Shown: positions 4,824 to 39,146 of the stretch, in pieces
Position numbering within the stretch: the first letter of the stretch is position 1
Layout of the letters: every line of letters begins with the position of its first letter
Origin: a virus
Taxonomy: Duplodnaviria > Caudoviricetes
Length of the DNA: 47,372 nucleotides
Strand: one strand, 5' to 3'
Virus record (IMG/VR): IMGVR_UViG_3300042298_002142
Coordinates: 1 to 47,372 of that record
Program-made: the position numbers and the translations under genes
Notes under the pieces: model-generated
Databases searched by the model: none
Told to the model about the DNA's origin: nothing
Seen by the model: the letters and a program-made list of their open reading frames with translations, nothing else

Positions 4824-7136
4824 ATGCCCGAATTACCCTCATCTCTCGCCAAGCTGCCAACGGAGACTCCCCCGGTCCCGGACGCCACCGCCGCCACTCG
4901 CGTCAAGCGGGCAAGCGACGTGGTCAGCCAGTTCCAAACACTCTTCAACGAGGACTACATCGCCAGCCGCGACAGAGCGGTCGTGCAGTCCATGGCAGAC
5001 CGACAGCCGCCCTACAGCGACGGCGTGCTGCGCAAGCTGGGCATCTCTGGCATCACCAACGTCAACTGGGGCGACTTGGGCGTTGCCCAGGCCGAGGCAG
5101 AGAAGCCGTACAATTCGGTGCTCATGTCGATGTCGCACTTCGGCATCGTGCCCTTCAAGCGTGAGGCGATCAACCAAGGCGTCGTCTCTGAGTCAGACGC
5201 CGAGGGAATGCAGATGGTCGTGGCGGAGGAGCTTCACCGCATGATCACCGAATGGCGAGACTTCCGGTTCTGGTGGAAGCTGCTGGCCCACTACTTCTCC
5301 ATGTGGGGCGTCGGGTTCAACTACCGCGACGACAATCTCGACTGGCGTTGGAAGGCGGCGTCCCTTCAAGAGGTGAAAATTCCTCGCGGCGTCAAAGCAA
5401 GCGTCAACGAGGCCAACCACATTTTCATGAAGGTGGACATGACCCCGTCCGAACTTTTTGCCAAAGTGAAAGACCCCGAGGCAGGCAGGCTTACCGGGTG
5501 GAACGAAGCCGCGATTCGCAAGTCCTGCATCAACGCACAGCCCAAGCCGCTCGAAACGCAGTCGCCCGAAGCAATGGAGGCAATGTGGAAGGATAACGCT
5601 TTTTACGCAGGTAACACCAACGTCGTCATCCAAGCCGTCCACGGATTTGACAAAGAAGTGGACGGCACGGTCAGTCACTACATCGTGGACTACCTGCTCA
5701 ACACGGACGACGCTGAGTTCCTCTACGAGAAGAAGGGCGAGTTCGGCAGCATGTCTGAGTTCATCAACGCTTACCTCTTCGGCGTCGGCACCAATGGCGA
5801 TTTGCACAGCATCCGAGGCAACGCTTTCAACCTGTTCCCCGCCGCCAGTGCCCTCAACAAACTGCGGTGCAAGCTGGTGGACAAGGCCAACGACGAGGCC
5901 AACACCTTTCTTTCCACCGAGAACGAAGATGCGACCATTGACAACATGATCGTGCCTCGTGGTCCGTATTTCCAGCTCTCCACCGGCACCACCTTCGTCG
6001 AGCGGACCACACCCCCGGTCGCCCAGAACCTCGTACCCGCCATCTCCGCGATGAACGAGGTGTTCCGTACGCAGTCCTCGGGCATGGCTCCGCGCTCCAC
6101 CAGCCAGTCGGAGGAGGGGCAGAAGACCAAGTACGAGCTTCAACGGCGGGACGAGATCGACTCCTCGCTCACCAGCGATGCCATGGACATGTTCATGGAA
6201 GCGTGGAAGTGGGACTACCGCGAGGTGGTCAAGAGGGTCATCAACCCGGAGCTTCACCCCGACCATCCGGGCGGTGCGCAGGCGTTTGAGTTTCGCAAAA
6301 GGTGTATCGAACGTGGGGTGCCCGAGCAGGCGTTGCTCTTGCTCGACTACGACCGGATCACCCTCAACACGGGCATCGGTCGTGGGTCGAGCGCCGAGCG
6401 CCGGTCAGTGCTCTCCAACTTGAACGAGACCATCTATGGTCGCCTCGACCCCGAGGGGCAGCAGACCCTCACCCGCGACACCATTGCCGCGCAGACCGAC
6501 TACCGTTACGCCCTGTCGCTCGTGCCACGGATGGCCGGGCAGCGTCCGCCAATCGACAAGCAGATCGCCAACAACGAGAACCAACTTCTTCAGGTCGGCG
6601 GCAACGCCATCATCGTGCCGAACCAGAACCACGAGGTTCACGTCAGCACTCATCTCGAACTGTTGCAGGCGCTCAACGCCGCGCTCTCCAACGTCGAGAT
6701 GGAGTTGGAAGAAGCCATTCCGGTCATGCAGAAGGCGTCCGAGCACTGCGGCATGCACATGGAGTACCTCGACCCAGAGAGTGCCCCCTACCGCGAGTTC
6801 AAGCAGCAGCTTCAACAGCTTGGCGAGGTCATCACCAACGGCGCGAAACATCTGGAGGCCGAACGGCGCAAAGCCGAGAAGGAGCAGGCCAAGATGCAGG
6901 GGATGCCCGCCACCGAGGACGGCACCCCTCCCGGCGTGTTCGGACAGGCGGTGGACGCCGCCGCCAAGATGGAGTTGCTTACCCAGCAGGGTCTCACCAA
7001 GATGGAACTCCAGAAACGGGAGGCCGATCAAAAGCTCCTCATCAACGACGCCTTCGCCGCGCAGAAGCTCAAACACATGGAAGCCCAGCAGCAGGTTAAA
7101 GCGCGGGCACCCCAGAAGACACCTCCCCAAGCATGA
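4824..7136 (+). CDS. Portal protein (putative)
   Basis: About 770 aa; first gene of the head operon, upstream of scaffold and MCP; helical/coiled-coil Q/K/A-rich C-terminus as in P22-like portals; ATG 4824 preferred over GTG 4794. Confidence 0.65.
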   Translation: MPELPSSLAKLPTETPPVPDATAATRVKRASDVVSQFQTLFNEDYIASRDRAVVQSMADRQPPYSDGVLRKLGISGITNVNWGDLGVAQAEAEKPYNSVLMSMSHFGIVPFKREAINQGVVSESDAEGMQMVVAEELHRMITEWRDFRFWWKLLAHYFSMWGVGFNYRDDNLDWRWKAASLQEVKIPRGVKASVNEANHIFMKVDMTPSELFAKVKDPEAGRLTGWNEAAIRKSCINAQPKPLETQSPEAMEAMWKDNAFYAGNTNVVIQAVHGFDKEVDGTVSHYIVDYLLNTDDAEFLYEKKGEFGSMSEFINAYLFGVGTNGDLHSIRGNAFNLFPAASALNKLRCKLVDKANDEANTFLSTENEDATIDNMIVPRGPYFQLSTGTTFVERTTPPVAQNLVPAISAMNEVFRTQSSGMAPRSTSQSEEGQKTKYELQRRDEIDSSLTSDAMDMFMEAWKWDYREVVKRVINPELHPDHPGGAQAFEFRKRCIERGVPEQALLLLDYDRITLNTGIGRGSSAERRSVLSNLNETIYGRLDPEGQQTLTRDTIAAQTDYRYALSLVPRMAGQRPPIDKQIANNENQLLQVGGNAIIVPNQNHEVHVSTHLELLQALNAALSNVEMELEEAIPVMQKASEHCGMHMEYLDPESAPYREFKQQLQQLGEVITNGAKHLEAERRKAEKEQAKMQGMPATEDGTPPGVFGQAVDAAAKMELLTQQGLTKMELQKREADQKLLINDAFAAQKLKHMEAQQQVKARAPQKTPPQA

Positions 7137-8875: not shown

Positions 8876-10054
8876 ATGCCTGCCGACGCTATCAACCAGT
8901 ACTTCATCTCCGACGCCTCCCGTATTCAAGGCAAGATCGACAAGGTCATGCGCGTGAAAGGTCGTCTCTCCCCCCTTCTCAAGAAGGATGTCCTGCCCGA
9001 TGGCATGGGCTTCAACTTCTCCACCGTCATCACCAAACGCTCTGTGGGCGTCGGCGGTGGTTGGGTCGCTGTTGCCACTCCAGACGGTTCCGGCAACAAC
9101 TGCGTTCCGACCCCCACGGTCGTTTCTCCTGCTCGTACGCAGATCAGCTACTCTGCCTCGCAGACGGTGCAGTTCTCGGAAGACATCTGCTTCCGCGACC
9201 TTGCTGCCGCCTACGACGCCCGCGATCAGCTTGCCACCGACCGCGACAACTTCGTCGCGAACGTCGTGGACCTGTGGGACATCCAGGACAAGCTCCAGTT
9301 CACCTACTGGGCCGGTCACAAGATCATCTTCAACGGCTCGCTCACGGAGACGACCAACGGCACCACGATGCCCGCGACCATCGCCACCAGCACGATCAAC
9401 CAAGGTCTCCTGGACGTGCTCTACAACCGTGCGACCCAGGACGCCGCTGGTGAAGAGTCCGCCTACGCCAAACGTCAAGGCGCTCCGATCCTGCCGCTGA
9501 TCCTCTCCCAACAGGCGCACCGCACCCTCATCAAGGGCGACGACAGCATCCGCGACGACTTCCGCTGGGCTGACTCCGGCAAAGGCGACGGTGCTGTCCT
9601 GCTCCAGAGCTGGGGCATCGACCGTGAGTACGGCGGTTTCCACCACATCATCGACCAACGTATGCCCCGCTGGGACTTCGTGAACGGTGCCTGGGTGGAA
9701 CGTCCGTTCTACTCCAGCACCGCCACCACCATCGGTGAAGCTGCTGACGTTTCTGCCGCTTACACCGCCGCCGAGTTTGAAGACCTCTACATCTTCAGCC
9801 CGGACGTGATGACCCGTCAGGTGCCGAAGCCCTCGACCTCCTTTGGTTCCGGCTCCAGCGCCAAGGCGATCAGCTTCAACGGTGAAGTCGTGTGGCTCAA
9901 CATCCCCGACAAGGAACTCAATCCGTTCAGCGACATCGGCTTCTTCGCCGCCCGTCTGTATGCGGCTTGGAAGCCCCGCAAGGTGCAATACGGCTACGTC
10001 GTCCGCTTCAAGCGTTGCCCGAACGTCGCCACGACTGACTGCCCCGCCTATTGA
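8876..10054 (+). CDS. Major capsid protein
   Basis: About 390 aa after scaffold; strong codon bias; own promoter and downstream terminator; ATG 8876 (MPADAINQY). Confidence 0.8.
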   Translation: MPADAINQYFISDASRIQGKIDKVMRVKGRLSPLLKKDVLPDGMGFNFSTVITKRSVGVGGGWVAVATPDGSGNNCVPTPTVVSPARTQISYSASQTVQFSEDICFRDLAAAYDARDQLATDRDNFVANVVDLWDIQDKLQFTYWAGHKIIFNGSLTETTNGTTMPATIATSTINQGLLDVLYNRATQDAAGEESAYAKRQGAPILPLILSQQAHRTLIKGDDSIRDDFRWADSGKGDGAVLLQSWGIDREYGGFHHIIDQRMPRWDFVNGAWVERPFYSSTATTIGEAADVSAAYTAAEFEDLYIFSPDVMTRQVPKPSTSFGSGSSAKAISFNGEVVWLNIPDKELNPFSDIGFFAARLYAAWKPRKVQYGYVVRFKRCPNVATTDCPAY

Positions 10055-11725: not shown

Positions 11726-12063
11726 TGCCCTACGCCGTCGCCATCCTGGTGACTGACCGCGTGAGCGGCACACCGCCGCAAGTGACGGCTGTGCGCGAAT
11801 TGCTCGTAACTCACTTTGGCCGCGAGCCAGAAGTGGCGGCACAGGAGTTTGTGCCTGCGGCCTCGCCAGACGGCCAACTGCCTGCGTCCGCGTGGTGGCT
11901 GGCGACGTTGTTCGCCGAGGACAAGCTGGCACTCGCTCAGCAGATCGCCACGCAATACCCCGGCTCACGCGTGGAACCCTACGACCAGGACACCGAGCCG
12001 CTGAAGCCGTGGGACGTGCTCGCCGAGATGGGGATGCAGCCTCTCAACCATGACGTGCCATGA
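11725..12063 (+). CDS. Hypothetical protein
   Basis: TGATG overlap at 11725 (MPYAVAIL...). Confidence 0.65.
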   Translation: MPYAVAILVTDRVSGTPPQVTAVRELLVTHFGREPEVAAQEFVPAASPDGQLPASAWWLATLFAEDKLALAQQIATQYPGSRVEPYDQDTEPLKPWDVLAEMGMQPLNHDVP

Positions 12064-12597
12064 GTGAATCCACCACGCTATGACATGCAGCTTCCTAAAC
12101 TCACACCAGAATGGCAGGCGATCATTTTCGATGAGTCCCCCGCGCCAATGGCCCTTGTTACTGCTTGCCATCGCTTTGCTCGATGTAACGACGCATATTG
12201 TGCCCTGGTTGGTTACTCGCGTTCTGAACTTCTCTCTCGCACATGGCAGTCTATCACCGCAGGCGAAGACATTGACGGCGATTTACAGGGAGCCGAACAC
12301 CTTGCCGAGAACGACGACTCCCAAATCTATACCGTGGAGAAACGCTACCGAACCAAAGCAGGGCCGCTGGTATGGGTTAAGCTCCATGTTCGCGCTGTCT
12401 GGCTTGAAGGCCATTTCGAGGGCTACTACGTCACCGCCCTACCGCTCGACAAGCCAAGCTCTGCCACTCCCAAGTCTGTCGGCATCATCGAGTGGACGAA
12501 GAAAAACCCCAAAGACGCAACCATTGTTAGCCTTGCAGGAATCCTGCTACTCGGGCGAGATGATTTTGTCGAACTTCTGAAACTTTGGATCAAATAA
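12064..12597 (+). CDS. Stand-alone PAS/PAC-domain protein with hydrophobic C-terminus
   Basis: IFDESPAPMALV..RFARCNDAYCALVGYSRSELLSRTWQSIT..ED..YTVEKRYRTKAG..VWV is a canonical PAS+PAC signature; alternative ATG at 12085. Confidence 0.85.
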   Translation: MNPPRYDMQLPKLTPEWQAIIFDESPAPMALVTACHRFARCNDAYCALVGYSRSELLSRTWQSITAGEDIDGDLQGAEHLAENDDSQIYTVEKRYRTKAGPLVWVKLHVRAVWLEGHFEGYYVTALPLDKPSSATPKSVGIIEWTKKNPKDATIVSLAGILLLGRDDFVELLKLWIK

Positions 12598-12598
12598 A

Positions 12599-13060
12599 AT
12601 GTGGCCGTTCAAATCCAAGCCCAAGACTCCGCTTCGCAGCGCCATCGACGGCGCGACGGTTAAGCTACTTCTCGACATCGCCCTACAGGGCCGCAAGCGT
12701 GCTGACTATCGGCATCTCGGCCAGAAGGAGTCTCTGAGCGTCATCACCCGCGCCGACGTGGACAAGGCCAGCCGTAAGGCGTGGATGCCGTGGTTTGCTG
12801 GCAAGTGGGAATGCGAGGATCAAAGCCGCGCTCTCGTCCATGAGGCGCAAAAGATAGCTGCCGCCGAAGGCCGCTCCTGGGCTATTGGCACTCTCCGCGC
12901 TCGTGCGCCAAAAGGCTTGGACGGCTTCCACGTCTATGTGTGGGCTATCGTCCAGACCGAGGGCCGCTTCGGTGGCCGGGACGTTTACTTCTACGACCCT
13001 ACCGCGCAAAGCTGGGCTAGCGCCGCAGACCTCCACGAAGTCGATTACACGATGACATGA
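12599..13060 (+). CDS. Papain/transglutaminase-like cysteine protease-fold protein (putative)
   Basis: WECEDQS (Cys), HVYVW (His), FYDP motifs. Confidence 0.5.
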   Translation: MWPFKSKPKTPLRSAIDGATVKLLLDIALQGRKRADYRHLGQKESLSVITRADVDKASRKAWMPWFAGKWECEDQSRALVHEAQKIAAAEGRSWAIGTLRARAPKGLDGFHVYVWAIVQTEGRFGGRDVYFYDPTAQSWASAADLHEVDYTMT

Positions 13061-13566
13061 ACACCCCACCTCCCATGCCCTTGATCCGCCCGGTTCGGGA
13101 TTCGAGCTTTGGCTTTGGCTTCCTGCCGCGTATTGGACCGCTCAAGAACTGGATTCAAGGTCCGCTCTTTGAGCTGTGCGAGACGCACGACTTCACGGTT
13201 TGCAACACGGGCTTTGAGAAGCAATACCACATCCCAACGGGATACCAGTTTGACAAGGCCAGCGTGCCCCCTTTGGCGTGGTCGTTCGGATACACGCCTG
13301 ACGGACTCTGCACCGTCCCGGCCCTGGAGCATGATTTCCTATGCGACCTGCATAACGGCGGCTCCGCTTGGCTGCGTGAACGCCTTGGAGAGATTCCAAC
13401 CGCTCCGTCGCCAGCGGTGATTCACAAGCATTTCCACCTGTCCCTGCAAGCCTGGGGAACTCGCGGCAGCAAGGCCAAGGTGATGTACACGGGAGTCGAT
13501 TGGTTCGGCCCTGGCGGCAAAGCGTGGCCGACGAACTGGTTCAAAAGAAAAACTAAACTGTCATGA
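13057..13566 (+). CDS. DUF1353-family protein
   Basis: IPTGYQFDKASVPPLAW..PALEHDFL signature. Confidence 0.75.
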   Translation: MNTPPPMPLIRPVRDSSFGFGFLPRIGPLKNWIQGPLFELCETHDFTVCNTGFEKQYHIPTGYQFDKASVPPLAWSFGYTPDGLCTVPALEHDFLCDLHNGGSAWLRERLGEIPTAPSPAVIHKHFHLSLQAWGTRGSKAKVMYTGVDWFGPGGKAWPTNWFKRKTKLS

Positions 13567-14060
13567 GCGCCTTCACCGAAACTCTCGTCACCATCGCTCT
13601 CGCTGAAGTCGGCGTCAAAGAGGTCGGCTCATCCAATCGTGGTCCTCGCGTTGACCAGTATCAACGTGCGACGTGGCTTGAAGAAAAAGATTGGGGCGCG
13701 TGGTGCGCTTCCTTCGTCTGCTGGTCCATTCGCGAGGCGATGAAAGCCCAAGGAGTCAAAGAGACTAAGGGTTTCAGACGCCCACGCACTGCTGGTGCAT
13801 TCGACTTTGAGCGGTGGTCTCTCGCCCAAGACGCCACCACCGCAACCCGTAAACCGGCAGGGAAAGACATCCAGCGCGGCGACTTAGTCATCTTCTCCTT
13901 CTCTCACATCGGCATCGCTCTCGGACCTCCTGATAAGCAGGGCATGCTTCAGACCGTGGACGGCAATAGTAACGCCAAAGGCTCCCGTACAGGCGGAATG
14001 GTCTGCACACCCGTCCGCCACATTGACCTTGTCCGTTCACGCATTCGTTTCACCATCTGA
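13563..14060 (+). CDS. Endolysin, CHAP-type amidase/peptidase
   Basis: ALAEVGVKE..NRGPRVDQY..WCASFVCW..GDLVIF..SHIGI..TVDGN. Confidence 0.8.
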   Translation: MSAFTETLVTIALAEVGVKEVGSSNRGPRVDQYQRATWLEEKDWGAWCASFVCWSIREAMKAQGVKETKGFRRPRTAGAFDFERWSLAQDATTATRKPAGKDIQRGDLVIFSFSHIGIALGPPDKQGMLQTVDGNSNAKGSRTGGMVCTPVRHIDLVRSRIRFTI

Positions 14061-20600: not shown

Positions 20601-23600
20601 ATGGCGGACACTCCTTCATGGCTTGCCGAATACCCCGAGGCTGCTGAAAAAGATTGGCTCAACGAGTATCCAGAGGCAAAAGACGAACCTTTCTTCGACC
20701 TCTCAGACACATTGTCTGCCGCAGGGCAGGCAGTCACGGGCTTGCCTACAACCGTGCCTCGGGCTTTCAGGCAACTTTACGAAGGTCTCGAAAACCCGTG
20801 GGAACGTGGAGAAGGGTATCTGAAATCTCAAGAAGCCGCCGACGCCTACCAGCAGGAGTTGGAAGCCGCCAACCTGGAAGCCGAGAAATCCGGCGACATC
20901 TCCACCATGTCTCGCGGCATGCGTCAAGCTGGGCAGTCTCTCGGCTTTAGTGCCGGAGCTATGGGCGCAGGTCTCATCGCCAGCACTCCATCTGCGGCTG
21001 CTGGCAGGACTATTGGCGGTCTGGCTGGCCCTGAAGGGGCGGTTGCTGGTGAAATCATTGGACGCGGTGCCGGTGCGCTCGCTTCAGGCTACGGCGCTGC
21101 CTACCGTATGGCTGGAGCGCAGTTCCTCGACGACGCCCGCAAAGAGATCGACGCCAAGTTTTTACAAGTCACGGGCGAACTGCCGAACGAGCAGCAGCAG
21201 GAAGAAGCGTATCAAGAACTCTTGCCGTTGGCGCAGGCGTTCGGGCACGCGGAAGCCGGTCCAGAAGCCATCGGCAACCTCGCCATGGCTGGGGCTGGTA
21301 AGTATGTGTTCGGCCTCGGGCGTAAAACCATTGAAAAACTGGCGGCGAGCGCCTTGGGCAAAACCGGGGCTGCGGCGGGAGCACTCGGCACCGAGCTTGC
21401 AGGCGAGACCATCACAGGAGTTGAGCAAAACCGCATCGACTCGCAGAAGAAGGACATCCTCGAAGGGCGAGACCCTTCAGAACTGCCTTCTCGGGAGATG
21501 GAAGACTACCTCAAATCGTTCAAAGAGGTGGCCCCAGCAACGCTCGCCACCATGGGCTTGATGAGTGTGGCCCCTGCCACCGTCAAAGCCGCCAGCCTCA
21601 TCCGTGGGAAACCTGCGGAAGCGGCTCCCACCGACGACTTTGCCCAACGTGCCGCTATGGAAGGCGCAGTGGGGGAAGCTACCCCCGTCGAAGTGGAAGG
21701 CGTCGTCATCGCCACCATTCCCCCGGAGTCCGACATGACTCCCGAAGACGTGCTCGACTTTGCCAACAGTCCCGAGGACATGGCAATGCTCGCCCGCAAT
21801 GGCAAGATTACACTCCCCGAAGTGGTGGAGCCTATCGACGGCGTTGACCCTGCGATTACCGAAGAGATGGACGCCCGACTTGCAGAGGGCAAGGCTTCTG
21901 GTTTGGCGGATCAAACTTTGGCTGAATTGGAGAGGCAGAAAGCTGCGCAGGGAGCGCCTGCCCCCACTGCCGAAGCACCCGCCCCCACTGCGCCTGTTGA
22001 GTTGCCAGATGTCGAATCTGGAATCATTGATGCAAGGATAGATTTGCCCCGTTTACAGGCGGCCATACAGCAGAAGCCAGATGGAAAAACAAGCGGCCCT
22101 CGTGTTACCGACGTAGTTGCTAACAATGATTTTGCTAAAAATGGAGGGTGGAAGCTGCATCTTTCCGTCACTCCAGAGAACTATCAAGCAGTTGATGAGT
22201 GGTTGCATAAAAACCACAAAGGTCAGTATAAACTTCTAAGCGGTGGATCACCAGAAGAAGGGTCTGATTTCACCGTTTATGTTGGTCATAAAGATGCCGC
22301 CAACGATCTTGCGTCCAAGATTGAATCTGAAATTGGAAACCTTCTAAACCCGTTTGAGAGCGGTCCAGCAAAGGACGCTCAGTTTAATGCCAAGGTTGGT
22401 GGGCGTTTTGATGTTGCACGCACTGGAAACATTAAAGATGTTCCATGGAATTATGCTGGCATGAGTGGCGTTCCATTTGATGAGACGGCCATGGAGGCTA
22501 TCAACAACATTGGTGAAGCTCCCAAAACACGAGAGCAGTTTGCCGCAAAAGCCGCTCCAGAAATTGAGCGAATCAATAAGCAGTTGGTCGCCAAATACGG
22601 AGACCGCTACACTGGATCAAAAACACCTGCCCCCGTTGCCGAAGCACCCGCCCCCACTGCCGAAACTCTTGGTGTCACAGCGCCACTAGCCCCGACGCTG
22701 GAAACCCCCGAAGGCGCGGCACGCAACGCCGACATGCTCCGTCAAGCCGCTGCCCGTGTGGCAGGCACCGAGCGGGGGCCACGAGTTGGCCTGATTCCAC
22801 AACCAAGTGTAAAGTTGAATTTGACTCCTGACGAAACCAGCGGCACAGGTGCGGCGATGAAAGAAGAAAATCAACAGACCGAGAGTGGGGTGGTTCACAA
22901 GGCCGCCGTGCTTTCTAGTATTAACAGCAAATCATCAGTCTCCGCCGAAGCCGTTGACACCTACAAGATCGCCCTTCCCGAAGGCTACGTCAAACAAGGC
23001 GATCTTTACGTCTTCAAATCCCCAGCCGCTACCGAAGGCGCGGTCATGCCGGGAGGCAGTGCTCCTGCTCCTGCTACAACACTATCACGCGGCAAACCCA
23101 GAGAAAGCATCGTTTTCAAAACGCCGGTAAAGACACCTCTTGGTGAGGTGGTTGGCTATTCATGGTCCAGTCAGCTTGTGGAGGACGTGGACAATATGGG
23201 CGAGCCAGTCCTTCGCCGCATCTCTAACTGGGAAGAGGCGACCAACAATGCCGAGACAGGGCGCGACATCGTTCACAAGTTCCTAATCAGGAAGCCAGAC
23301 GGCACAACTTCCGAAGTGTCTCTTGAGAGCACTTTCGGCAAGATGACCGACAGCGACAAGAAGACCATCAAAGCCGTTGTCTCTGCGGCTAAAAGACTGC
23401 CCTTCATGCGCGCAGAACTGGCAGAGCTTCAAGACTTGCAGAAGCAGGCAGAGGCAGACTACCAACGGACGCAGAAGCTCACACCCGACCCAACGAAGTT
23501 GGAACTGCGGGAGCCAGACGTAAAATGGCGGGCTGAAAAAGGTGACAAGGTAGCCTATCTCGGCGGGGTGTTTATCGGCTTTGTCGAGAGCGGCAACATC

Positions 23601-26600
23601 AACGCTAAAGGTGAACTGGCTAACAAAGCCAAGTTCGTGTATGACAACGCTTGGAAGTGGCAAGGTGCGCAGCGCAAGGTTCAGATGACCGAAGCGCAGA
23701 AAGACCGTTTGAAGTCTCTCACTCGCAACGTTAAAAAAGCTGAAGAACTCTTGAAGAGTGAAAATGTTGAAGTCGCGAAAGTGATAACCGATGAGCAACC
23801 AACTTCGCTGGCTGAAGCAGGTCCACCTGCTGCGGAAATGAAGACCCCCTCTGCGACGGCAGATCAGCCAGCCCCAATTTCTAAGGAAGAACCTACCAAT
23901 ACTCAGCGTGGACAGCGAGGGCGTGTGGCTGTTGGCGTACCACCCCGCGATACTGGAGCTACTGATACCCCTAAAAGACCCTCGCTCGGAAGCACCGGAA
24001 AACAAATCATCGACGCTTGGCGATCCCTTCAAGGAGTACAAGTCGCCCCCGGAGAAACCGTTGTCGGGTGGGACGTAAACGGAGGAGGAACCTATGCCTT
24101 CATCAACAATAAACTTGTCAAACTGAAGAGAGACAACAAGGGTTTCGAGTCCACTTACACCGACGCCACTGATGCGGACTGGCAAGAGGTCAGTGATGCG
24201 CTTGACCGTGGTGCTCTCCAAGTGGAAGTACGGAAGATCACAGGGTTGGGTAACTACCCAAAAGTAGATGCAGGTAAGACTGTCAAAGTTCTTCACCAAG
24301 CTACTGGGAAACCTCTGCAAGAGTTTCTGGATACACCAGAAGGGGCAGCCTATGAAGCCCGAATGCAGAAAGCGGTTGCTGAAAGAGGCCCGAAAGAGTC
24401 CCCTGCCCCACAGGCCCAGCAGCCAGCGCCCCAGCGTGACACGTCGAAGCCAGAGCAGATGACGCCGGAGGAGTTTGCCTCTTCTGAGCGCGACCCTGAA
24501 CTGCCAAAGAACTATGTGCTTTCAGATGGCAACGGCAATTTTGTAACCGAAGAGAAGAATGGATGGTTCAGAGTTTGGAGGCTGACAGGTACGCACGCAA
24601 CATTGGCGGGAACGGTAGGCTTCAAAGGCGCTGAAGGGCTAGCCAAAGCTAAGGCACGTCTGAAAGAAGTCAGCGCTGAGAGGCACGAAGAAAAGCTACA
24701 GAATGGTCTTCGCACAAAGAAACCAGTCTCCGCCGCCGCCGTTGACGCCTACGGAATCAAGCTGCCAGAAGGCTACGTCAAGCAAGGCGACCTTTACATC
24801 TTTCAGCCTTCGTCAGAGAAATCTGACTTGGGCGCAGGTGCCGCTACAACTCCTTCAACGGAGCCATTGAAAGTAACAACACCGGAGGCTGGAAAATCTC
24901 CCCAAACCGCAAAGGTAGCCACCGAGTGGACGCCAACCGTCAATGCTCCTGCCGCTTTCACCGCCAATAACGGACAGAAACTCGTAGGCACCGTGCAGTC
25001 GATTGAGGGCGGTAAAGCCGTCGTGAGCTTCTCGTGGAACGGCCAGACTCAGAAGGCGACCGTTCGCCCTGATCGCCTTTCCAGCCCGGTTGCCTCGCTC
25101 ACTGATCCGCCGCGATACCAATACACGCAGGAGCAGAACACGCGAAAGATGGCGAAACACTTCCCATCGGCTCCCGGTGTTCACGCCAATCACGACTTCC
25201 GCAAGTCCTTCGCCTCCATGGCAAAGGACGCGTCGTTGTCGCGCATCTACCGGCAGATCGCCAAGGAGCTGTCGAAGATGTCCGCGTTCGCGAACGTGGA
25301 TCTTCACGTCGTCGCCGACGAGAACACGCGCTACGCAGGCGAGTATTCCCACAGCAACGGCAAGTCAGCCATCGCGGTCAACCTGCGGCAGGTCGGACGT
25401 GGCATGGTCGATGCCCTCGGCACCATCCTGCATGAGGCGCTTCACCACGTCACACTGGCGAAGGTGCGCGATCCGCAGGGGGCTTGGGAGAACGAAGTCT
25501 TTAACAAGCTCGACACCATCCGCGAGAAGGTGTTGGAGTATGCCAAGGAAAAAGGTCTATACGATAGGCTGGACTACGAGCTTGACACTGTGGAGGAGTT
25601 CATCTCTGCCCTCACCAACCCCAACTTCCAGAACTTCCTCGCCTCGATCCCCGACAGTTTCTCGACTGGTGTGTCTGTGGGCAAGTTCCGCTCGGTGCTC
25701 TCCGAAGTGTTCCGCCTCATTGCCGAGTGGATCAAAGGCGAGCCGGTTGCCAGGGGCAGCACGATGGAGCAATACTTTACGACCGTGCTCGCGACCTTCG
25801 AGACTCCGCACCGCGCCTGGGACACGGGCAAGTTGGAAGCGTTGAACGCGGTGCAGAGCGGGGCACAGCAGGCGACTCCCGAGTCAATCCGTCACGCCGA
25901 GTTGGAGGCCAAGTTCAACGCCGGAACGATCACGCCTGAAGAGACTGCGGAGGCGCGGCGGTTGGTGGGTGAGCGGGCGAAGGCGGCTGGGTATGACGTG
26001 GGACCGGTGTACCATGGTACAGAGCAGAAAGGTTTGACCGAGTTTTACGGCGGTTGGTGGTCTGACACAAAGAAGGTCACACGCGAGTTTGGTTCTCAGA
26101 GGTATTCAGCATATTTGAAGGGGCCGCTAGCGGATGGAGATACTCTTCGACAGCTTTACAAAGAGTACAACGGCACTGACATCGACCAAGACTCGGATGA
26201 GCCTCTGTACGATAGCGAAATTGGGGATGCCGCCATGGCTGGTTCTAAGTTTCAAGAACTTGTGCGCAGCAAGGGATACCAAGGAATAGAGGTGTGGGAT
26301 GAGAGCAACGCCGAGACAGGGATGGCTTACGCTGTTTTTGAACCGAACCAAATCAAATCCGCCGACCCCTTCACCGGGGTTCCGCTCGACCAGCGTTTCG
26401 ATGAGAAGTCCAACGACATCCGGGCATCCCGTGCCGAGGGCAGAGGATACCGCTCCCCCACCGACATGCTCGCGGAGGCAGCGCAGAAGGCCAGAGGTGA
26501 AACCGTGGGAACCAAGCCGCAGGGACTCGCCAGCATGTTCAACCCGCAGGCCAAACGCCCGGCCACCGGGGAGCGCAAGTTGCTGGACATGCCACAAACT

Positions 26601-29600
26601 ATCAATCTGCCACAAGCTGATAGCAAACTGATAGCAAACGCCTATCGCGAGGCCGTGCGTGGCTCCAGCACGCAGATGGCTCCGCTCTCCACCGTCTATG
26701 CGCAGGCTCGGCTGCTTCAACCCGGACTCACGCCCGAGACGTTCTTGGCACAGGTGCAGGAAGGCTACGACAACGGCACGCTGTTGCTCGAAGGCGCGGG
26801 CAGCCAGCAAGAAGCCGCACAGTCCAGCCTATCGCTGCCGGGTACTCCCGTGGGAACGGCTGTGCGTATGATGCCAGCACCGCAGGGGACGTTGAAGAGT
26901 AAGGCCGACGACGGCGAACCACCTATCATCGACATCGGCGGCGAAGCAGAACCTGCGGACGGTCCTGAGTTTGCCTTCACTCGCGCTCGCTTTGCTCCGC
27001 CAAAACCGGAGGACCAAATGTATCAAGTCCATTCGGACGAGGAAGCTACCAAGAAAGCCTTTGCCTGGATCAACGCCGTTGGCCCACTCCGGGCTGCCGA
27101 CCTGTTGATGGCAGACCGTGCGCCGAGCGACATGGACCTCAACGTGAAGAACATCGTCATGGGTGGTCTGCTCAAAGGTTTCACAGAGATTTCGATAGAC
27201 CCCAACGCCAGTGAGGACGAGAAAACGGTCGCACGCGCCACCAATCAACGGCTTGGGAAGTATCGAGTACGGATGAACCAAGACGCCGCCCGTGGCATGC
27301 GTCAGATTGGAGTGCAGAACGGTGCAGTGCTTCAACTCATCGCCCCTATTCTTGCAGTGGAAGAGGTGCTCGCAGATCACGGAGAGAAGATTCTGGAGGA
27401 TCAGTTCGAGGGAGGATCGGAAGGTGCGGCTCCGCGAGTAGCCGGTGCTGCCGAGACGGCCACTGCCGAAGCCGACGAACGATTGGAGAACATCATCCGT
27501 CGATTGATGGGCAGCCTGCGTCCAAAGCAAACCTCTGTTGGTGCGCTCGCCCGCATGTTCCGTGGTATGGGACAGCGTGACCAGATCATCGACGAAGTAG
27601 CCAAAGCCTTGATGCTCAAAGCCCGTGGCAACGTGGTCGCTCCCGAACGGAAGACCGCGCTTGCCAATTTGGTGAGCAGCCTTAAAAGCACTCTCGCAGC
27701 CAGTGTGAAGGGTGAGAAGAAGCCCGCGCCCGAGCGCACGCTGCAAGACCTGCTGACCAGCGCATTCGTCAATCAGGTGTCTGAGGGTCCGGCGTTTGAA
27801 TCAGCGTGGAAAGAGGGTCGTCAAAAAGTGCTCGACATGCTGATTGATATGGAGTTGGACAAAACTTTCCATCCAGCCCAAAAGCGTCTGGCCGATCTTC
27901 GTGCCAAACTCACCTATTTGGAGGCTGGAAGTGCCGAACAGCAGGAAGCCAGTGCCGCAGAACGCGCTCAACTCGCCGACCAGATCAAGGTTGCCAAGGT
28001 GGAAACGAAAGCCGCTATGGATGCGGTCAAGGCAATGACGCCTCAACTCGAAGCGCAGCGCGATGCGTTGATGCCCGCCGCTCCAACGGTGGCGTTTGAC
28101 CCCGTGTCTTCCCGTGAAGCGATTGGCCGTGCATTTGAGAAGGCAGGTTACACCGCCGACTTGGCAACGGGTCTGGACAAGTCCGGCAAACGCACTCTCA
28201 GCATCAAAGACGCGCTGCTCAACCGTCAACGCGCCGCTGACGCCGTGATAAAAGTGTTCGACGCGGAGATGCAAGTCCCGGACGCCGCGACTCAAAACGA
28301 TTGGCCGCAAGCCCGCGCCCTTGCACTCAAGGCGGTCAACGAGACTCTCGACTCGTGGCAGGCGCAGACAGACGCCGACAAAGTGGCGAAGCTAGAAGCC
28401 GCCAAGCAGAGTCTTCTCAGCGAGGACTCCAAAGCTCTTGAGAAGCTGGTTAACTCCATCCGCAATAGAATCCTCCCCGACTCAGATTGGTCTGACATTC
28501 TCTACGACCTGCCGCGCACACAGGCGGAACGTCTTGCCGCCATCAAGGACCGTGTCGCCAAACATGAGGCACTGAAGAACCTCACCCCGGATGAGTCGAA
28601 AAAGTTGGCGGAGAGCATCGACAAACTGTGGCAGCGCGAAAGACTCAAAGCGTTCCAAGACGAACTCTTCAAAGCTGGCGTCCTGAAAGCCAAGACCACC
28701 AAGGCTGTTGCGAACGTGGCGTCTGCTGCTCCCGAGCTTCTCCGACTCATGAACCTGGGAGTGTTCAACTCCAGCACTTTCCGCGAAGCGATCTCCAAAC
28801 GGTTCGGCTTGAAGCTCCTGACCGGCGTTCAGGCCGATGCTTTGCGCAAGCTGGCAGCCGAAGCGTGGGGCAGTCCCCAAGGCGTCCTGCGCAATCAGAA
28901 ACTCGGCCAATTGGTTGAAGGCATCCAGCACGCCACTGGTGCGAACTGGGCAGACGTGATGAACTCCTACTGGATCGCCAGTGTTCTTAGCGGTTTGCGC
29001 ACTCACTTCGACACCTGGGGAGGTGTCGTGAATGGTCTCGGCACCAACCTCATTCAAGCAGGAGTCCAACTGTCGAAGGGCAGAGGGGTTGCCGCTTTCG
29101 ACATCCAGGCTCAATGGTGGAAAGGATTGTTCACCGGACTCAATGAAGCCCTGTATCTCCTGCGCACCGGAGACCCCTCATTCACCAAGCGTTTTGAGGC
29201 CGATCTTATCGACGCTCTGAATGGCGAGAAGACCGCGCACCCCATTGCCATCGGCGAGAAGATGTGGAAAAGCGGCAGCCTGCTCCAGAAGATTCCCGGC
29301 GCTCTGATGATGGTGGTCGGTCGTAGCATGGTCGCCGCCGACCACGTGAACAACACCGCCACCACGCAGGGAGCGATGGCCGTGGCTCGGGCGATGAATC
29401 CTGAGCTTTATGAAGGCAAGACATCTTGGACTCAGAAGGAGATCGCCGACGCTCGCAAGCAGGCGATTGCCGAGGCCACGGCAGGAGCGGAACCCGCGAC
29501 CAAATTTGAACGCATGCTGGTCGCCAAGCGCACTCGCGAAATTCTTAACGCCGGGCTGACCGAGGCAGACCAGATGGCTGCTTCTGAAGTAGGAGACATC

Positions 29601-30869
29601 GCCGCATTCCAGAACGATCCGACGGGGTTGTTTGGCGGACTCTACCATGCGGTTAAGTCAGGCTTGTCTTCCGCAGTCCGCAGTCTGGACCAAGTTGCAC
29701 AAGATGAGGAAGCTGCCAAGATCACGCGAGCGTTCGCCGCAGTGACGGCAGGCAGCGTCCACGCCCTCACCGGCACGAGGTTCATGCGCTTCGGCTTCAA
29801 CCTCGGCAACGAGTTCATGCGCTACATGCCCGGCTCGTGGCTGCTGAACAAAGGCACCAACATCCTCGGCAGCAAACTCAGCCCGATGCAGCAGGATATG
29901 CTGATTGGTAAGAACGTGGTCGGGGGCATTCTGCTTGCCACTCTCTATTCTCTGTTTGGAGACGACGACGAATCCGAGGACGGCAAGTGGCACATGGAAG
30001 GTCCGTGGAACGATCTCAGTCTCGGTGAGCAGTCTTCCCGCCTGAGCGCGGGATTGGCGAAGAACTCCTTTTGGCGCAGGAAAGACGGCAAGATTGAGCG
30101 CATCAGCTATGCACAATGGCCGACTGCCGGACTTCTAGCCGCTGTGGGAAGCATGCTCGACGAGAAACGCTACAAGCCTGAAGACTGGAATCAGCGCGGA
30201 GTAGCGGGACACATTCTTCAAGGCGCTGTCACTGGGCTGTTTCAAGTCCAAGATGCTGCCGCCATGCAGCAGGTTGCCGAACTTTTCAGCACCTCGTCCT
30301 CGTACGGGGCGGCACAAGGGATGCCGGAGAAAGTCATTAAAATGGGTACGAACTACCTTGGGGGTCTGGTACCCACATCCGTCAAAGATTTGGACAAGTG
30401 GCAAGACCCACGCAATTTCCGGGCAGACGGCGTCTGGGAAAAGCTCGTCCGCGAGATGCCTGTCGCACGTCGATTTGTCAACGATGGGCGTCCGCAGTTC
30501 AACCGCATCGGTCAAGATGTCCGACTCCACCGCGAGCCTTACAGCCGTCTCTACACAACTGACGAAGCAGACAAGGCGACTGTGGCCTACGGGCAGTTAC
30601 TCGCGAGGGGTATCGACTTTCCTACACCGAGCACCAAACGTCAGATCATCAAGGACGGCAAGAAGGTGCCTATGGACACCCTCGGCAAAGGAGTTACTTA
30701 CGACTTCGAGAAAGCGGTCGCTCTCAGCTATGGCAAGTTCTTGCAGGAGAACGGCGAGCGGATCACAGGAATGTCCACCAAGGCGCTCGACAAACTGATT
30801 CGTGATCGGGCCACGCGCATCCTCGACATCGAGACCCGCAAGGTTCAAGCGAAAGTCAACAACCCATGA
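20601..30869 (+). CDS. Giant polyvalent virion/ejection protein (3422 aa) with lyase-like, zincin and ADP-ribosyltransferase-like domains
   Basis: G/A-rich N-terminus; GWKLHLSV..FTVYVG (~22143); HEALHH (25431-25448); VYHGT..GYQGI..YAVFEPNQIKS (26007-26360); helical C-terminal region. Confidence 0.75.
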   Translation: MADTPSWLAEYPEAAEKDWLNEYPEAKDEPFFDLSDTLSAAGQAVTGLPTTVPRAFRQLYEGLENPWERGEGYLKSQEAADAYQQELEAANLEAEKSGDISTMSRGMRQAGQSLGFSAGAMGAGLIASTPSAAAGRTIGGLAGPEGAVAGEIIGRGAGALASGYGAAYRMAGAQFLDDARKEIDAKFLQVTGELPNEQQQEEAYQELLPLAQAFGHAEAGPEAIGNLAMAGAGKYVFGLGRKTIEKLAASALGKTGAAAGALGTELAGETITGVEQNRIDSQKKDILEGRDPSELPSREMEDYLKSFKEVAPATLATMGLMSVAPATVKAASLIRGKPAEAAPTDDFAQRAAMEGAVGEATPVEVEGVVIATIPPESDMTPEDVLDFANSPEDMAMLARNGKITLPEVVEPIDGVDPAITEEMDARLAEGKASGLADQTLAELERQKAAQGAPAPTAEAPAPTAPVELPDVESGIIDARIDLPRLQAAIQQKPDGKTSGPRVTDVVANNDFAKNGGWKLHLSVTPENYQAVDEWLHKNHKGQYKLLSGGSPEEGSDFTVYVGHKDAANDLASKIESEIGNLLNPFESGPAKDAQFNAKVGGRFDVARTGNIKDVPWNYAGMSGVPFDETAMEAINNIGEAPKTREQFAAKAAPEIERINKQLVAKYGDRYTGSKTPAPVAEAPAPTAETLGVTAPLAPTLETPEGAARNADMLRQAAARVAGTERGPRVGLIPQPSVKLNLTPDETSGTGAAMKEENQQTESGVVHKAAVLSSINSKSSVSAEAVDTYKIALPEGYVKQGDLYVFKSPAATEGAVMPGGSAPAPATTLSRGKPRESIVFKTPVKTPLGEVVGYSWSSQLVEDVDNMGEPVLRRISNWEEATNNAETGRDIVHKFLIRKPDGTTSEVSLESTFGKMTDSDKKTIKAVVSAAKRLPFMRAELAELQDLQKQAEADYQRTQKLTPDPTKLELREPDVKWRAEKGDKVAYLGGVFIGFVESGNINAKGELANKAKFVYDNAWKWQGAQRKVQMTEAQKDRLKSLTRNVKKAEELLKSENVEVAKVITDEQPTSLAEAGPPAAEMKTPSATADQPAPISKEEPTNTQRGQRGRVAVGVPPRDTGATDTPKRPSLGSTGKQIIDAWRSLQGVQVAPGETVVGWDVNGGGTYAFINNKLVKLKRDNKGFESTYTDATDADWQEVSDALDRGALQVEVRKITGLGNYPKVDAGKTVKVLHQATGKPLQEFLDTPEGAAYEARMQKAVAERGPKESPAPQAQQPAPQRDTSKPEQMTPEEFASSERDPELPKNYVLSDGNGNFVTEEKNGWFRVWRLTGTHATLAGTVGFKGAEGLAKAKARLKEVSAERHEEKLQNGLRTKKPVSAAAVDAYGIKLPEGYVKQGDLYIFQPSSEKSDLGAGAATTPSTEPLKVTTPEAGKSPQTAKVATEWTPTVNAPAAFTANNGQKLVGTVQSIEGGKAVVSFSWNGQTQKATVRPDRLSSPVASLTDPPRYQYTQEQNTRKMAKHFPSAPGVHANHDFRKSFASMAKDASLSRIYRQIAKELSKMSAFANVDLHVVADENTRYAGEYSHSNGKSAIAVNLRQVGRGMVDALGTILHEALHHVTLAKVRDPQGAWENEVFNKLDTIREKVLEYAKEKGLYDRLDYELDTVEEFISALTNPNFQNFLASIPDSFSTGVSVGKFRSVLSEVFRLIAEWIKGEPVARGSTMEQYFTTVLATFETPHRAWDTGKLEALNAVQSGAQQATPESIRHAELEAKFNAGTITPEETAEARRLVGERAKAAGYDVGPVYHGTEQKGLTEFYGGWWSDTKKVTREFGSQRYSAYLKGPLADGDTLRQLYKEYNGTDIDQDSDEPLYDSEIGDAAMAGSKFQELVRSKGYQGIEVWDESNAETGMAYAVFEPNQIKSADPFTGVPLDQRFDEKSNDIRASRAEGRGYRSPTDMLAEAAQKARGETVGTKPQGLASMFNPQAKRPATGERKLLDMPQTINLPQADSKLIANAYREAVRGSSTQMAPLSTVYAQARLLQPGLTPETFLAQVQEGYDNGTLLLEGAGSQQEAAQSSLSLPGTPVGTAVRMMPAPQGTLKSKADDGEPPIIDIGGEAEPADGPEFAFTRARFAPPKPEDQMYQVHSDEEATKKAFAWINAVGPLRAADLLMADRAPSDMDLNVKNIVMGGLLKGFTEISIDPNASEDEKTVARATNQRLGKYRVRMNQDAARGMRQIGVQNGAVLQLIAPILAVEEVLADHGEKILEDQFEGGSEGAAPRVAGAAETATAEADERLENIIRRLMGSLRPKQTSVGALARMFRGMGQRDQIIDEVAKALMLKARGNVVAPERKTALANLVSSLKSTLAASVKGEKKPAPERTLQDLLTSAFVNQVSEGPAFESAWKEGRQKVLDMLIDMELDKTFHPAQKRLADLRAKLTYLEAGSAEQQEASAAERAQLADQIKVAKVETKAAMDAVKAMTPQLEAQRDALMPAAPTVAFDPVSSREAIGRAFEKAGYTADLATGLDKSGKRTLSIKDALLNRQRAADAVIKVFDAEMQVPDAATQNDWPQARALALKAVNETLDSWQAQTDADKVAKLEAAKQSLLSEDSKALEKLVNSIRNRILPDSDWSDILYDLPRTQAERLAAIKDRVAKHEALKNLTPDESKKLAESIDKLWQRERLKAFQDELFKAGVLKAKTTKAVANVASAAPELLRLMNLGVFNSSTFREAISKRFGLKLLTGVQADALRKLAAEAWGSPQGVLRNQKLGQLVEGIQHATGANWADVMNSYWIASVLSGLRTHFDTWGGVVNGLGTNLIQAGVQLSKGRGVAAFDIQAQWWKGLFTGLNEALYLLRTGDPSFTKRFEADLIDALNGEKTAHPIAIGEKMWKSGSLLQKIPGALMMVVGRSMVAADHVNNTATTQGAMAVARAMNPELYEGKTSWTQKEIADARKQAIAEATAGAEPATKFERMLVAKRTREILNAGLTEADQMAASEVGDIAAFQNDPTGLFGGLYHAVKSGLSSAVRSLDQVAQDEEAAKITRAFAAVTAGSVHALTGTRFMRFGFNLGNEFMRYMPGSWLLNKGTNILGSKLSPMQQDMLIGKNVVGGILLATLYSLFGDDDESEDGKWHMEGPWNDLSLGEQSSRLSAGLAKNSFWRRKDGKIERISYAQWPTAGLLAAVGSMLDEKRYKPEDWNQRGVAGHILQGAVTGLFQVQDAAAMQQVAELFSTSSSYGAAQGMPEKVIKMGTNYLGGLVPTSVKDLDKWQDPRNFRADGVWEKLVREMPVARRFVNDGRPQFNRIGQDVRLHREPYSRLYTTDEADKATVAYGQLLARGIDFPTPSTKRQIIKDGKKVPMDTLGKGVTYDFEKAVALSYGKFLQENGERITGMSTKALDKLIRDRATRILDIETRKVQAKVNNP
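21957..22660 (+). repeat. 35-bp direct repeats (21957-21991 and 22626-22660) flanking an AT-richer cassette
   Basis: cctgccccc(ac/gt)tgccgaagcacccgcccccactgc, 2 mismatches. Confidence 0.85.
22936..24803 (+). repeat. Diverged ~80-bp direct repeats (22936-23015 and 24724-24803)
   Basis: Encode VSAEAVDTYKIALPEGYVKQGDLYVF and VSAAAVDAYGIKLPEGYVKQGDLYIF. Confidence 0.85.
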
Positions 30870-33763: not shown

Positions 33764-34125
33764 GGTGCGAGAACGTGTTGGGGGATTCGTAGATATTCTC
33801 CGTTGGCGAAGTTGTATCGGTTCGGGTTCGCGTCGGCCAACACTCCGGGGCGCGACTTGGACATGCCAATAGATAAAGGCTCGTCTTGCCCCTTCCTCCG
33901 AAATCTCAGCAACAATCTCGCCGACCCTTTCTCTTCCACCGTTTGGCGCATCTCAACAGAGAGAGCACTGCTAAAGATCACCACGTCCTCATAAGCCGCT
34001 GTCAGATACTCAGGGTTGACCACATACTTTGCCGCTTTCGGCAGAGCAGGCACCAAGCCGGTGATCTCCATGGCTGCGGCACACGCTGCCCCGGCAAGGA
34101 GTTTGAAGATGGAGCGACGGTTCAT
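33760..34125 (-). CDS. Tat-signal-like protein carrying two MCP-like segments
   Basis: MNRRSIFKLLAGAACAAA twin-arginine leader; segments align with MCP (see findings). Confidence 0.65.
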   Translation of the reverse strand: MNRRSIFKLLAGAACAAAMEITGLVPALPKAAKYVVNPEYLTAAYEDVVIFSSALSVEMRQTVEEKGSARLLLRFRRKGQDEPLSIGMSKSRPGVLADANPNRYNFANGEYLRIPQHVLAP

Positions 34126-35120
34126 AGGCTGTAATTTTCAAGAGCTTGTTGTACGCGGAGAAACTGGGCCTGCCCCCCGTGATCCGCAAAGAAGGCGGGG
34201 CATCGTTCGACATTGGCGTCGTACACGGCGTCCTCGGCATCATCAATAGTGAGATTCTCCCTCTTCGCAACTTCTCTCACCAAAAGTTCAAAGCAGGGTG
34301 AAGCTCCACCGTTGTAGCGCCAGTTCCCCGGTGGCGTGGTGTGGATTTTCTTCTCCGTCTTGGGGCGGACTCCGCGCAGCACGGTGCCGTCTGGCAGCGT
34401 GACCACGCCGTCAGCGACATGGGAGGCGTTGGGGCGGACGTAGATGCAGTCGGGGAAGCCCAGATGAGTCTCTTGAATGAGGTTGTGTTTCAGCCCTTCG
34501 GCGATGGCGTTGGCACAGGACTGGTTGCCGATGAACAGGTCAGACCCTTTGATCAGCCGCGCCACCTCCAACATGTCTGTGGTGGGCTGGAACTCGACGT
34601 AGCCGTGGTGGCCGATGAACTCGCGCCACTCGTGATGCAGTCCGACGAAGAGCAGACGGTTGCGGAGATGAGCCACGATCTCTTTCCACGGGAACCGCTC
34701 GTTGCGATAGCGCCCGGTGCGGTTGATCACCACACGCCCTTTGGAGCGCGGCGACGGTTCGACGCCGTACAGCCACGGCTCGTCGGCGGTGAAGTTCTGC
34801 CCGATGCTGTGCGTCTTGATGAGGTGGTTGAGGTGCGCCCGCATGAGCGTCTCGCCTTTGGTGTAGTGACGTTCGCGGAAGCCCTCGCTCTTCCAGTCCA
34901 CCGGGTCGCCCGGCTGGATGATCTGGATGTCCGCGATGTAGGGTTGCAGCTTCACCAGTGGTGCCAGCAGATCATACATGCGTTGCACGCCTTCCGGTCC
35001 TTTGGCCTTGGTCGAAGACGATGAACGCAGGCACAGGGTGTGTGGGCCGTCGGGGATCTGTTTGAGCAGACACAGCGCAAACACCACATCGCCAATGTCA
35101 CCTGTAGAAGAAATTTTCAT
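34122..35120 (-). CDS. GT9 (heptosyltransferase)-like GT-B glycosyltransferase
   Basis: GDIGDVVFAL N-terminal motif; LIKGSDLFIGNQSCANAIAEGL C-terminal motif. Confidence 0.7.
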   Translation of the reverse strand: MKISSTGDIGDVVFALCLLKQIPDGPHTLCLRSSSSTKAKGPEGVQRMYDLLAPLVKLQPYIADIQIIQPGDPVDWKSEGFRERHYTKGETLMRAHLNHLIKTHSIGQNFTADEPWLYGVEPSPRSKGRVVINRTGRYRNERFPWKEIVAHLRNRLLFVGLHHEWREFIGHHGYVEFQPTTDMLEVARLIKGSDLFIGNQSCANAIAEGLKHNLIQETHLGFPDCIYVRPNASHVADGVVTLPDGTVLRGVRPKTEKKIHTTPPGNWRYNGGASPCFELLVREVAKRENLTIDDAEDAVYDANVERCPAFFADHGGQAQFLRVQQALENYSL

Positions 35121-35164
35121 GTGTTGGGGGATATTTCTTATTTCGTCATAAAATCTCCCCACGG

Positions 35165-39111: not shown

Positions 39112-39146
39112 GGGTGCGGCGTTCTTCGTGTTTGATAGGGTGAATG

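Follow-up and report, generated by a model that had tools for sequence, protein, structure and literature searches.

A candidate lysis-timing module of a PAS-anchor protein and a nested holin-like reading frame in a tailed phage

Introduction

Phage T4 times its lysis with holin T and the antiholins RI and RIII, i.e., with a single-pass holin whose triggering is set by partner proteins upon a signal (PMC11413866, PMC9636201). We describe here a locus of a tailed virus (Caudoviricetes; IMG/VR record IMGVR_UViG_3300042298_002142) that resembles this arrangement, in which a gene for a PAS-domain protein with a predicted membrane anchor carries a second open reading frame (ORF) nested in its +1 frame; the whole linear record of 47,372 bases, which is ca. 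72% complete, was analysed and is called the window below. The T4 system differs in its periplasmic DNA signal and its partners from separate genes, whereas at our locus a cytoplasmic PAS domain and its partner would come from two frames of one gene, and no homology of the module to T4 lysis-inhibition proteins was found. Holin T reportedly has a GAF-like fold, a term that neither of these papers uses. Neighbouring starts on one mRNA that set the ratio of effector to regulator are known from S105/S107 of phage lambda and S68/S71 of phi21 (PMC9636201). There, both starts share a frame and the two proteins are almost the same, whereas the two starts at our locus are out of frame and would give unrelated ones.

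Gene E of phage phiX174 is nested in gene D. A structured gene also hosts a membrane lysis protein in phage lambda, where Rz1 lies in the +1 frame of Rz (PMC6139136), and the embedding of hol187 inside ply187 is named in a title cited by PMC6023083. Such nested lysis genes are missed by gene callers. Our locus differs from these systems in that the gene hosting the nested frame encodes a putative PAS sensor, the starts are 5 nucleotides (nt) apart and a lipobox was not found. Partners with one transmembrane helix (1-TM) that are needed for a holin or tune it are exemplified by XhlA/XhlB (PMC5589764) and LysF1a/LysF1b (PMC13056207), and gp143 of phiKZ is a cytoplasmic holin regulator (PMC12894885); these systems have neither a sensor domain nor an overlapping frame. 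A literature search at the level of article listings, with most subscription papers outside its scope, found no PAS-coupled phage lysis gene. A preliminary description of positions 12,064 to 14,060 of the window had proposed a stand-alone PAS sensor that acts as a sensor-gated holin or lysis-timing device; the nested +1 ORF is an addition to that description, which had overlooked this frame.

Results

Selection on the +1 frame of the PAS gene

The two overlapping frames of the window comprise the following features.

12085..12597, + strand: PAS-anchor protein, 170 amino acids (aa), with PAS domain, variable linker and predicted C-terminal three-helix membrane anchor
12106..12447, + strand: PAS domain (ca. 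residues 8-121), from profile match, model and Foldseek
12481..12594, + strand: tail with amphipathic helix, 13-residue apolar helix between D144 and R158 (12517-12555) and second amphipathic helix
12080..12580, + strand: nested +1-frame ORF, 166 aa, holin-like candidate with basic N-terminus, predicted membrane helix and long Ser/Thr/Pro-rich tail
12149..12214, + strand: membrane helix predicted for the nested product (W24-V45), which contains the Asp35-x3-His39 pair
12060..12083, + strand: 7-codon minicistron whose start overlaps the stop of the upstream gene and whose stop overlaps the nested ATG

Selection acts on the +1 frame at its start codon, in the avoidance of stops, on hydrophobic codons and on a D-x3-H/R pair. 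We surveyed this frame in 40 loci of the PAS family, 36 of them with a complete start, and compared 23 representatives with 82 control genes; stops were counted across 21 clusters. PAS starts share the arrangement ATG-NN-ATG; the nested ATG (12080 in the window) lies at -5 in 32 of the 36 loci, at -8 in two and at -11 in one, with ATA in another one. An in-frame upstream ATG is present in 23/23 representatives versus 3/82 controls, and the frame is open for at least 125 codons in all 36 loci and for 126 to 178 codons in 23/23 representatives, compared to a single control gene (1/82) that is open over 120 codons from its start. Our script favoured PAS starts with an upstream ATG, but the chosen starts nonetheless agree with the protein alignment.

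Across PAS codons 1 to 150, the 21 clusters hold 2 stops in the +1 frame versus 77.6 expected, and past codon 150 they hold 40 versus 31.2. Homologues of the neighbouring genes show no such deficit (observed/expected: DUF1353, 148/115.1; endolysin, 57/53.3; papain-like, 47/41.2), and we dismissed an open +1 frame throughout the genome as the cause. Wobble T is near-fixed at PAS codons 26, 27, 29 and 31 against a background of 0.21, with TTT for Phe31 in 21/23 representatives and CGA or AGA for Arg33 in 20/23; the favoured codons include rare ones for Arg and Ala. The helix that these codons create in the nested frame has a hydrophobicity of 2.09 versus 1.10 in codon shuffles, bears the D-x3-H/R pair in 21/23 representatives and shows a positive-inside bias, with 2.6 Lys/Arg before it versus 1.0 after it. 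Its tail is of low complexity and, relative to shuffles, higher in Ser and Pro and lower in Arg and Cys. From this sequence evidence, we consider it very likely that the nested frame is a real gene.

No conserved Cys of a lipobox follows the nested hydrophobic stretch, nor is there a conserved hydrophobic C-terminus. Stops close the +1 frame of nine distant PAS genes and of the PAS gene in locus L242 (see below), and none of six nested sequences was present in the 15-billion collection. A frameshift fusing the nested helix to the PAS tail was rejected as a general explanation because the nested ORF stops 164 nt (L031) and 116 nt (L041) before the PAS stop. In the window only, the overlaps of the minicistron make translational coupling possible. 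Separately, the putative portal gene of the window (5130-7136) has 8 stops in its +1 frame versus 19.9 expected and an open stretch of 237 codons, and may contain more nested ORFs.

The PAS-anchor protein

The more likely start of the PAS gene is ATG 12085 rather than GTG 12064 because homologues align from 12085. The PAS_3 profile matches the protein with an E-value of 6.2e-09 (36.5 bits versus a cutoff of 25.6), four further PAS models also match, and no output domain was detected. Its AlphaFold2 model (predicted local distance difference test score, pLDDT, 85.8) shows a PAS fold, a loose linker and C-terminal helices at residues 134-140, 142-156 and 158-169, and PAS domains occupy the top rows of a Foldseek search of the PDB. 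Two family searches confined to proteins of ca. 90 to 315 residues yielded 77 proteins, with 64 clusters as full-length family members. All 64 have an uncharged tail stretch of exactly 13 residues (between Asp144 and Arg158 in the window) that is flanked by amphipathic helices, and the tail is rich in small residues. The stand-alone PAS domain and the short hydrophobic tail of the preliminary description are thus both borne out; the apolar stretch is short for a bilayer span and could be re-entrant or extend via a flanking helix. The ratio of nonsynonymous to synonymous substitution rates (dN/dS), pooled over non-independent pairs, is ca. 0.22 for the PAS part, ca. 0.13 for the tail and ca. 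0.65 for the linker. Among Pfam and PHROG profiles, the whole protein matches PAS only and no holin family, and a PHROG search with the tail alone found no family at an E-value of 0.5.

PAS sensors of the LOV, heme and flavin types are marked by a Cys, a His and a Trp, respectively. In the family alignment, the LOV Cys motif is not present (with WQSIT at that position), and the long helix of the family lacks the conserved His or Trp expected for heme or flavin sensors. The light or redox sensing that had been envisaged is therefore not borne out.

In a FastTree phylogeny of sampled domains, 16 family members form one clade (support 0.96) nested in a clade of short phage-type PAS-membrane proteins (support 0.94) whose outgroups are bacterial multi-domain proteins. 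No relative was found in a scan of viral contigs with the single protein or by tblastn of cultured phages. The best 80 of 181 GTDB loci contained no full-length family member, and 79 of these 80 lie within long ORFs. Among 301 genomes of the order of genome G006, the five matches at an E-value of 1e-35 are four multi-domain proteins and one sister form without the nested frame. The bacterial assembly L242 (1495-3040) carries a sister-form gene that joins PAS, a transmembrane (TM) helix and a coiled coil, followed by an alpha/beta-hydrolase-like gene, and the same pairing of PAS and alpha/beta-hydrolase-like genes is found in phage loci L002, L021, L025 and L195.

Other PAS genes are built differently. 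PAS domains fused to a two-helix hairpin lie outside lysis genes in L017:6004-6555, L060:5956-6501 and L064:549-1100 and directly 3' of a tail-tip-like gene in L014:5971-6540 and L016:5923-6534, and a PAS-only gene without a membrane helix is directly followed by one for an XhlA-like 76-aa protein in L018:993-1737. Cellulophaga phage phi18:3 gp090 is no more than a lead, since it matches neither the family profile nor Pfam; this protein (172 aa, N-terminal helix; L180:39102-40734) is encoded two genes 5' of a GH108 endolysin, and only its length fits a weak PAS-like Foldseek hit.

Genomic neighbourhoods of the family

The 40 loci of the family form 21 clusters at 85% identity. Their PAS gene usually lies 3' of tail-fibre-like genes and opens the lysis cassette. 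A firm cell-wall hydrolase (CHAP type, Amidase_3 or M15) is found downstream in 7/21 clusters; where 3 kb or more of downstream sequence is available (11 clusters), the hydrolase is firm in 5, putative in 4 and not seen in 2. Directly after PAS comes a papain-like, an alpha/beta hydrolase or a DUF1353 gene or else a small holin-like ORF. Endolysins of at least three classes adjoin the family. Lipoproteins are present in many family loci and absent from the cassette of the window. On the short contigs of L031 and L039, no lysis gene was found downstream.

A Hol44 holin above the Pfam cutoff lies two genes upstream of the PAS gene in 2/21 clusters (L024 and L032), and small holin-like ORFs were seen by eye in 4 more. 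The preliminary description had held that a separate canonical holin elsewhere would speak against its proposal, and this is what part of the family shows. In the window itself, a hydropathy scan revealed small multi-TM ORFs neither in the cassette nor anywhere else in this ca. 72% complete record, in keeping with the earlier remark that no conventional multi-TM holin is visible. By eye, the 6 clusters with holin-like ORFs and the 9 with lipase-type genes do not coincide among the 21, but we claim no mutual exclusion because the DUF1353 loci L226, L238 and L240 have both.

Many relatives, but not the window, carry a single-helix ORF of 30 to 35 aa just 5' of the endolysin (e.g., L197:12797-12892, L196:10545-10646, L025:4892-4984 and L037:1845-1946). 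An intein-bearing nuclease-like gene is inserted between DUF1353 and endolysin in L004:7664-9676.

Exchange of the PAS gene for other membrane proteins

The PAS gene is an optional allele of the membrane-protein slot of its cassette because relatives carry other membrane proteins in the same slot. No PAS match was found in 12 loci that share the endolysin of the window (59-91% identical; several truncated upstream), and seven of these, which were displayed, have 2- or 4-TM proteins there, often with a lipoprotein. Of six loci matched by the capsid gene, two match the window completely and stop short of the cassette, while the other four (84-94% identity of the capsid protein to that of the window) differ at the PAS slot. 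L197 encodes a 103-aa protein with TM helix and coiled coil, and the papain-like (47%) and DUF1353 (86%) genes come next as in the window; in this complete relative the only membrane candidates of the cassette are this 1-TM slot protein and a 31-aa TM ORF. L196 has a coiled coil with C-terminal TM helix and L194 a 4-TM protein, while the TM-coiled-coil-PAS_3 protein of L195 (13659-14279; E-value 1.4e-10) is a second, independent recruitment of PAS to the slot. The PAS family profile matched none of five such relative records, three of them at least 90% complete, but did match a known carrier. More broadly, a membrane protein is encoded within four genes upstream in 20/27 DUF1353 clusters (judged by eye, with one block not viewed), and PAS is found in none of the displayed representatives of these 27. 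The linkage to lysis genes that had been proposed from one locus holds.

The slot alleles of relatives share the 1-TM-plus-helix build of two-protein holin partners, but they score 17.3 and 16.4 bits against XhlA (PF10779), below the cutoff of 34.7 (E-values 0.005 and 0.01). As an aside, the +2 frame of the L196 slot gene (9431-9730) is stop-free over all 99 codons.

Downstream enzymes and genomic setting

Three genes follow the PAS gene in the window.

12599..13060, + strand: papain-like Cys-protease-type protein, 153 aa (Cys72, His111, Asp133)
13057..13566, + strand: DUF1353 protein, a likely phospholipase A2-like enzyme that retains His92-Asp93 and has His123 in place of the Asp of other members
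13563..14060, + strand: CHAP/NlpC-P60-type endolysin

All four genes abut or overlap, as tightly coupled as first described, and come after a putative capsid gene and tail-fibre-like genes on the + strand. The Cys-protease-like and DUF1353 neighbours had also been recognised correctly. Cys72 of the papain-like protein is invariant in 8 homologues; an alignment to solved structures found no relative (best E-value 0.05), and Agglutinin_C occurs in 11-17% of the members of its Atlas neighbours. A role of the PAS protein as dedicated substrate of this enzyme is unlikely because the papain-like gene also occurs without PAS.

The DUF1353 protein matches its profile with an E-value of 1.4e-09 and is likely phospholipase A2-like. 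PMC11525133 reports that one DUF1353 member, TtaP, is a phospholipase A2, and our protein resembles it in the His-Asp motif (His92-Asp93) and in having the Tuber phospholipase A2 (4aup) as best fold match. This match is modest (Z 5.5, root-mean-square deviation 3.0 over 81 aligned residues; model pLDDT 88.1), and Foldseek found no match for the protein. In contrast to TtaP, the second catalytic Asp appears, by alignment, to be replaced by an invariant His123 in the subfamily of the window. As for the CHAP endolysin assigned earlier, homologues at 55-61% identity exceed the CHAP cutoff (PF05257), but the protein of the window itself stays below this threshold and matches only NlpC/P60 (E-value 0.008) and PHROG endolysins (E-value 1.3e-06).

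Scans for promoters and terminators gave chance-level results only, and the guanine-cytosine content of the cassette is flat. Close DUF1353 homologues from Prosthecobacter, Brevifollis and Verrucomicrobiota assemblies, together with a PAS homologue that bears the label Verrucomicrobiota, make a Verrucomicrobium the likely host. Elsewhere in the window, a polyvalent-protein-like gene for 3422 aa (20601-30869) has an ART-PolyVal domain at residues 1803-1922, and a run of radical SAM, three methyltransferase and one GT2 glycosyltransferase genes on the - strand (34122-39150) is possibly a surface or DNA modification pathway.

Discussion

A candidate lysis-timing module

The locus probably acts in lysis. 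Our tentatively preferred reading, to which we would still not give more than an even chance, is that the two frames form one lysis-timing module of a nested holin-like trigger and a membrane-tethered PAS regulator. The +1 frame would encode a single-pass, holin-like protein, presumably with its N-terminus inside and its C-terminus outside, that damages the membrane as a trigger, while the PAS domain from frame 0, with a predicted tether to the inner side of the membrane, may set the time of triggering or put it off in response to a cytoplasmic signal. As in dual-start holins, the two starts 5 nt apart might compete and thereby fix the ratio of both proteins. We infer that the nested frame is translated, that its product and the PAS protein contact each other and that the PAS domain binds a ligand; the phospholipase-like and papain-like enzymes could help to breach the envelope before the endolysin acts. 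The nested protein is favoured as trigger, and as the better pore candidate, because the PAS anchor is short and because the nested helix, which in about half of the members could cross the bilayer, resembles the 1-TM slot proteins of relatives in build. A fuller picture, in which this 520-nt stretch is a dual-frame lysis clock with a PAS-gated burst upon a cytoplasmic metabolite, likely in Verrucomicrobia hosts, and with the phospholipase and the Cys protease in place of spanins, is conceivable but doubtful.

Several observations weigh against the two-frame module. L024 and L032 retain both frames alongside Hol44, so that the nested protein is not the sole holin there, and no recognised cell-wall hydrolase was found near L024 or L029. 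In L046, the PAS gene and a putative endolysin gene converge tail to tail from opposite strands, and no lysis genes are near the distant PAS-membrane genes of L017, L048, L060 and L064 (three of these four contigs measure ca. 190 kb). Hydrophobicity extends into the second half of the nested helix (mean above 1) in only 13/23 representatives, and this helix may be a signal peptide or short anchor. The window alone gives no significant signal, with 1 stop in the +1 frame versus 3.7 expected and +1 stretches of 120 codons or more in 7/17 of its other genes; the PAS clusters share ancestry, and the sole PHROG hit of the nested protein has an E-value of 0.08.

Alternative explanations

If the nested protein forms no holes, both products could be accessory factors of the XhlA/LysF1b type that act on a separate holin. 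We consider this unlikely, although a separate holin or holin-like ORF is present in 6/21 clusters (2 by Pfam, 4 by eye), the slot alleles resemble XhlA weakly, far below the cutoff, and 1-TM activators of 2-TM holins are described in PMC13056207 and 10.64898/2026.08.27.747656. What speaks against it is that a multi-TM ORF was found neither in the window nor in its cassette and that the cassette of the complete relative L197 makes do with just a 1-TM slot protein and the 31-aa TM ORF. Conversely, the PAS-anchor protein itself might be the sensor-gated holin, as first proposed, with the nested frame as its antiholin or as a translational decoy that keeps its synthesis low. The strong purifying selection on its tail and the abundance of small residues there would suit a holin, sister forms join PAS to a longer TM helix (L015 and L048; L242 with a coiled coil like the slot proteins), and the out-of-frame ATG that lies 5 nt upstream would be a competitor for ribosomes. 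Yet its apolar stretch between charges is only 13 residues long in 64/64 members, short for a bilayer, a pure decoy needs no hydrophobic codons, ion pair or 150 stop-free codons, and the separate Hol44 and holin-like ORFs in the family make the PAS protein an unlikely holin. On balance, this alternative is improbable, and the original proposal is supported in part.

The locus may also play no role in lysis and merely offer late expression; the PAS protein would then be a membrane-tethered decoy for, or modulator of, a host PAS kinase, and the nested frame would give a surface or exclusion protein. A kinase decoy, which had been raised before, fits the distant relatives on jumbo contigs outside lysis cassettes: related PAS-membrane genes lie amid metabolic or unknown genes in L017, L060 and L064, no same-strand lysis genes follow in L031, L039 and L046, and the family nests among short phage-type PAS proteins with bacterial multi-domain outgroups. 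We nonetheless regard this as quite improbable, given that the slot is exchanged with membrane proteins and saw a second independent recruitment of PAS and that the module is the only membrane candidate of the window's cassette. Highly improbable, finally, is a nested protein that substitutes for a spanin at the outer-membrane step without being a lipoprotein, its Ser/Thr/Pro tail crossing the periplasm. Its +1 architecture is that of Rz/Rz1 (PMC6139136), the cassette of the window has no lipoprotein, and Ser and Pro of the tail exceed shuffles, but it lacks a lipobox and a conserved hydrophobic C-terminus, and many family loci have lipoproteins of their own.

Implications

The locus would be a case of multi-gene lysis control, with strong sequence evidence for overprinting and, on top of it, a proposed sensing mechanism. 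The regulated lysis systems considered here respond to superinfection or to protein ratios, and a cytoplasmic small-molecule sensor coupled to lysis would, if true, be a new input. A nested gene that gene callers overlook may also account for cassettes that appear to be without a holin, and the cassette draws attention to DUF1353 phospholipases, which may breach the envelope in phages of a little-studied group of hosts.
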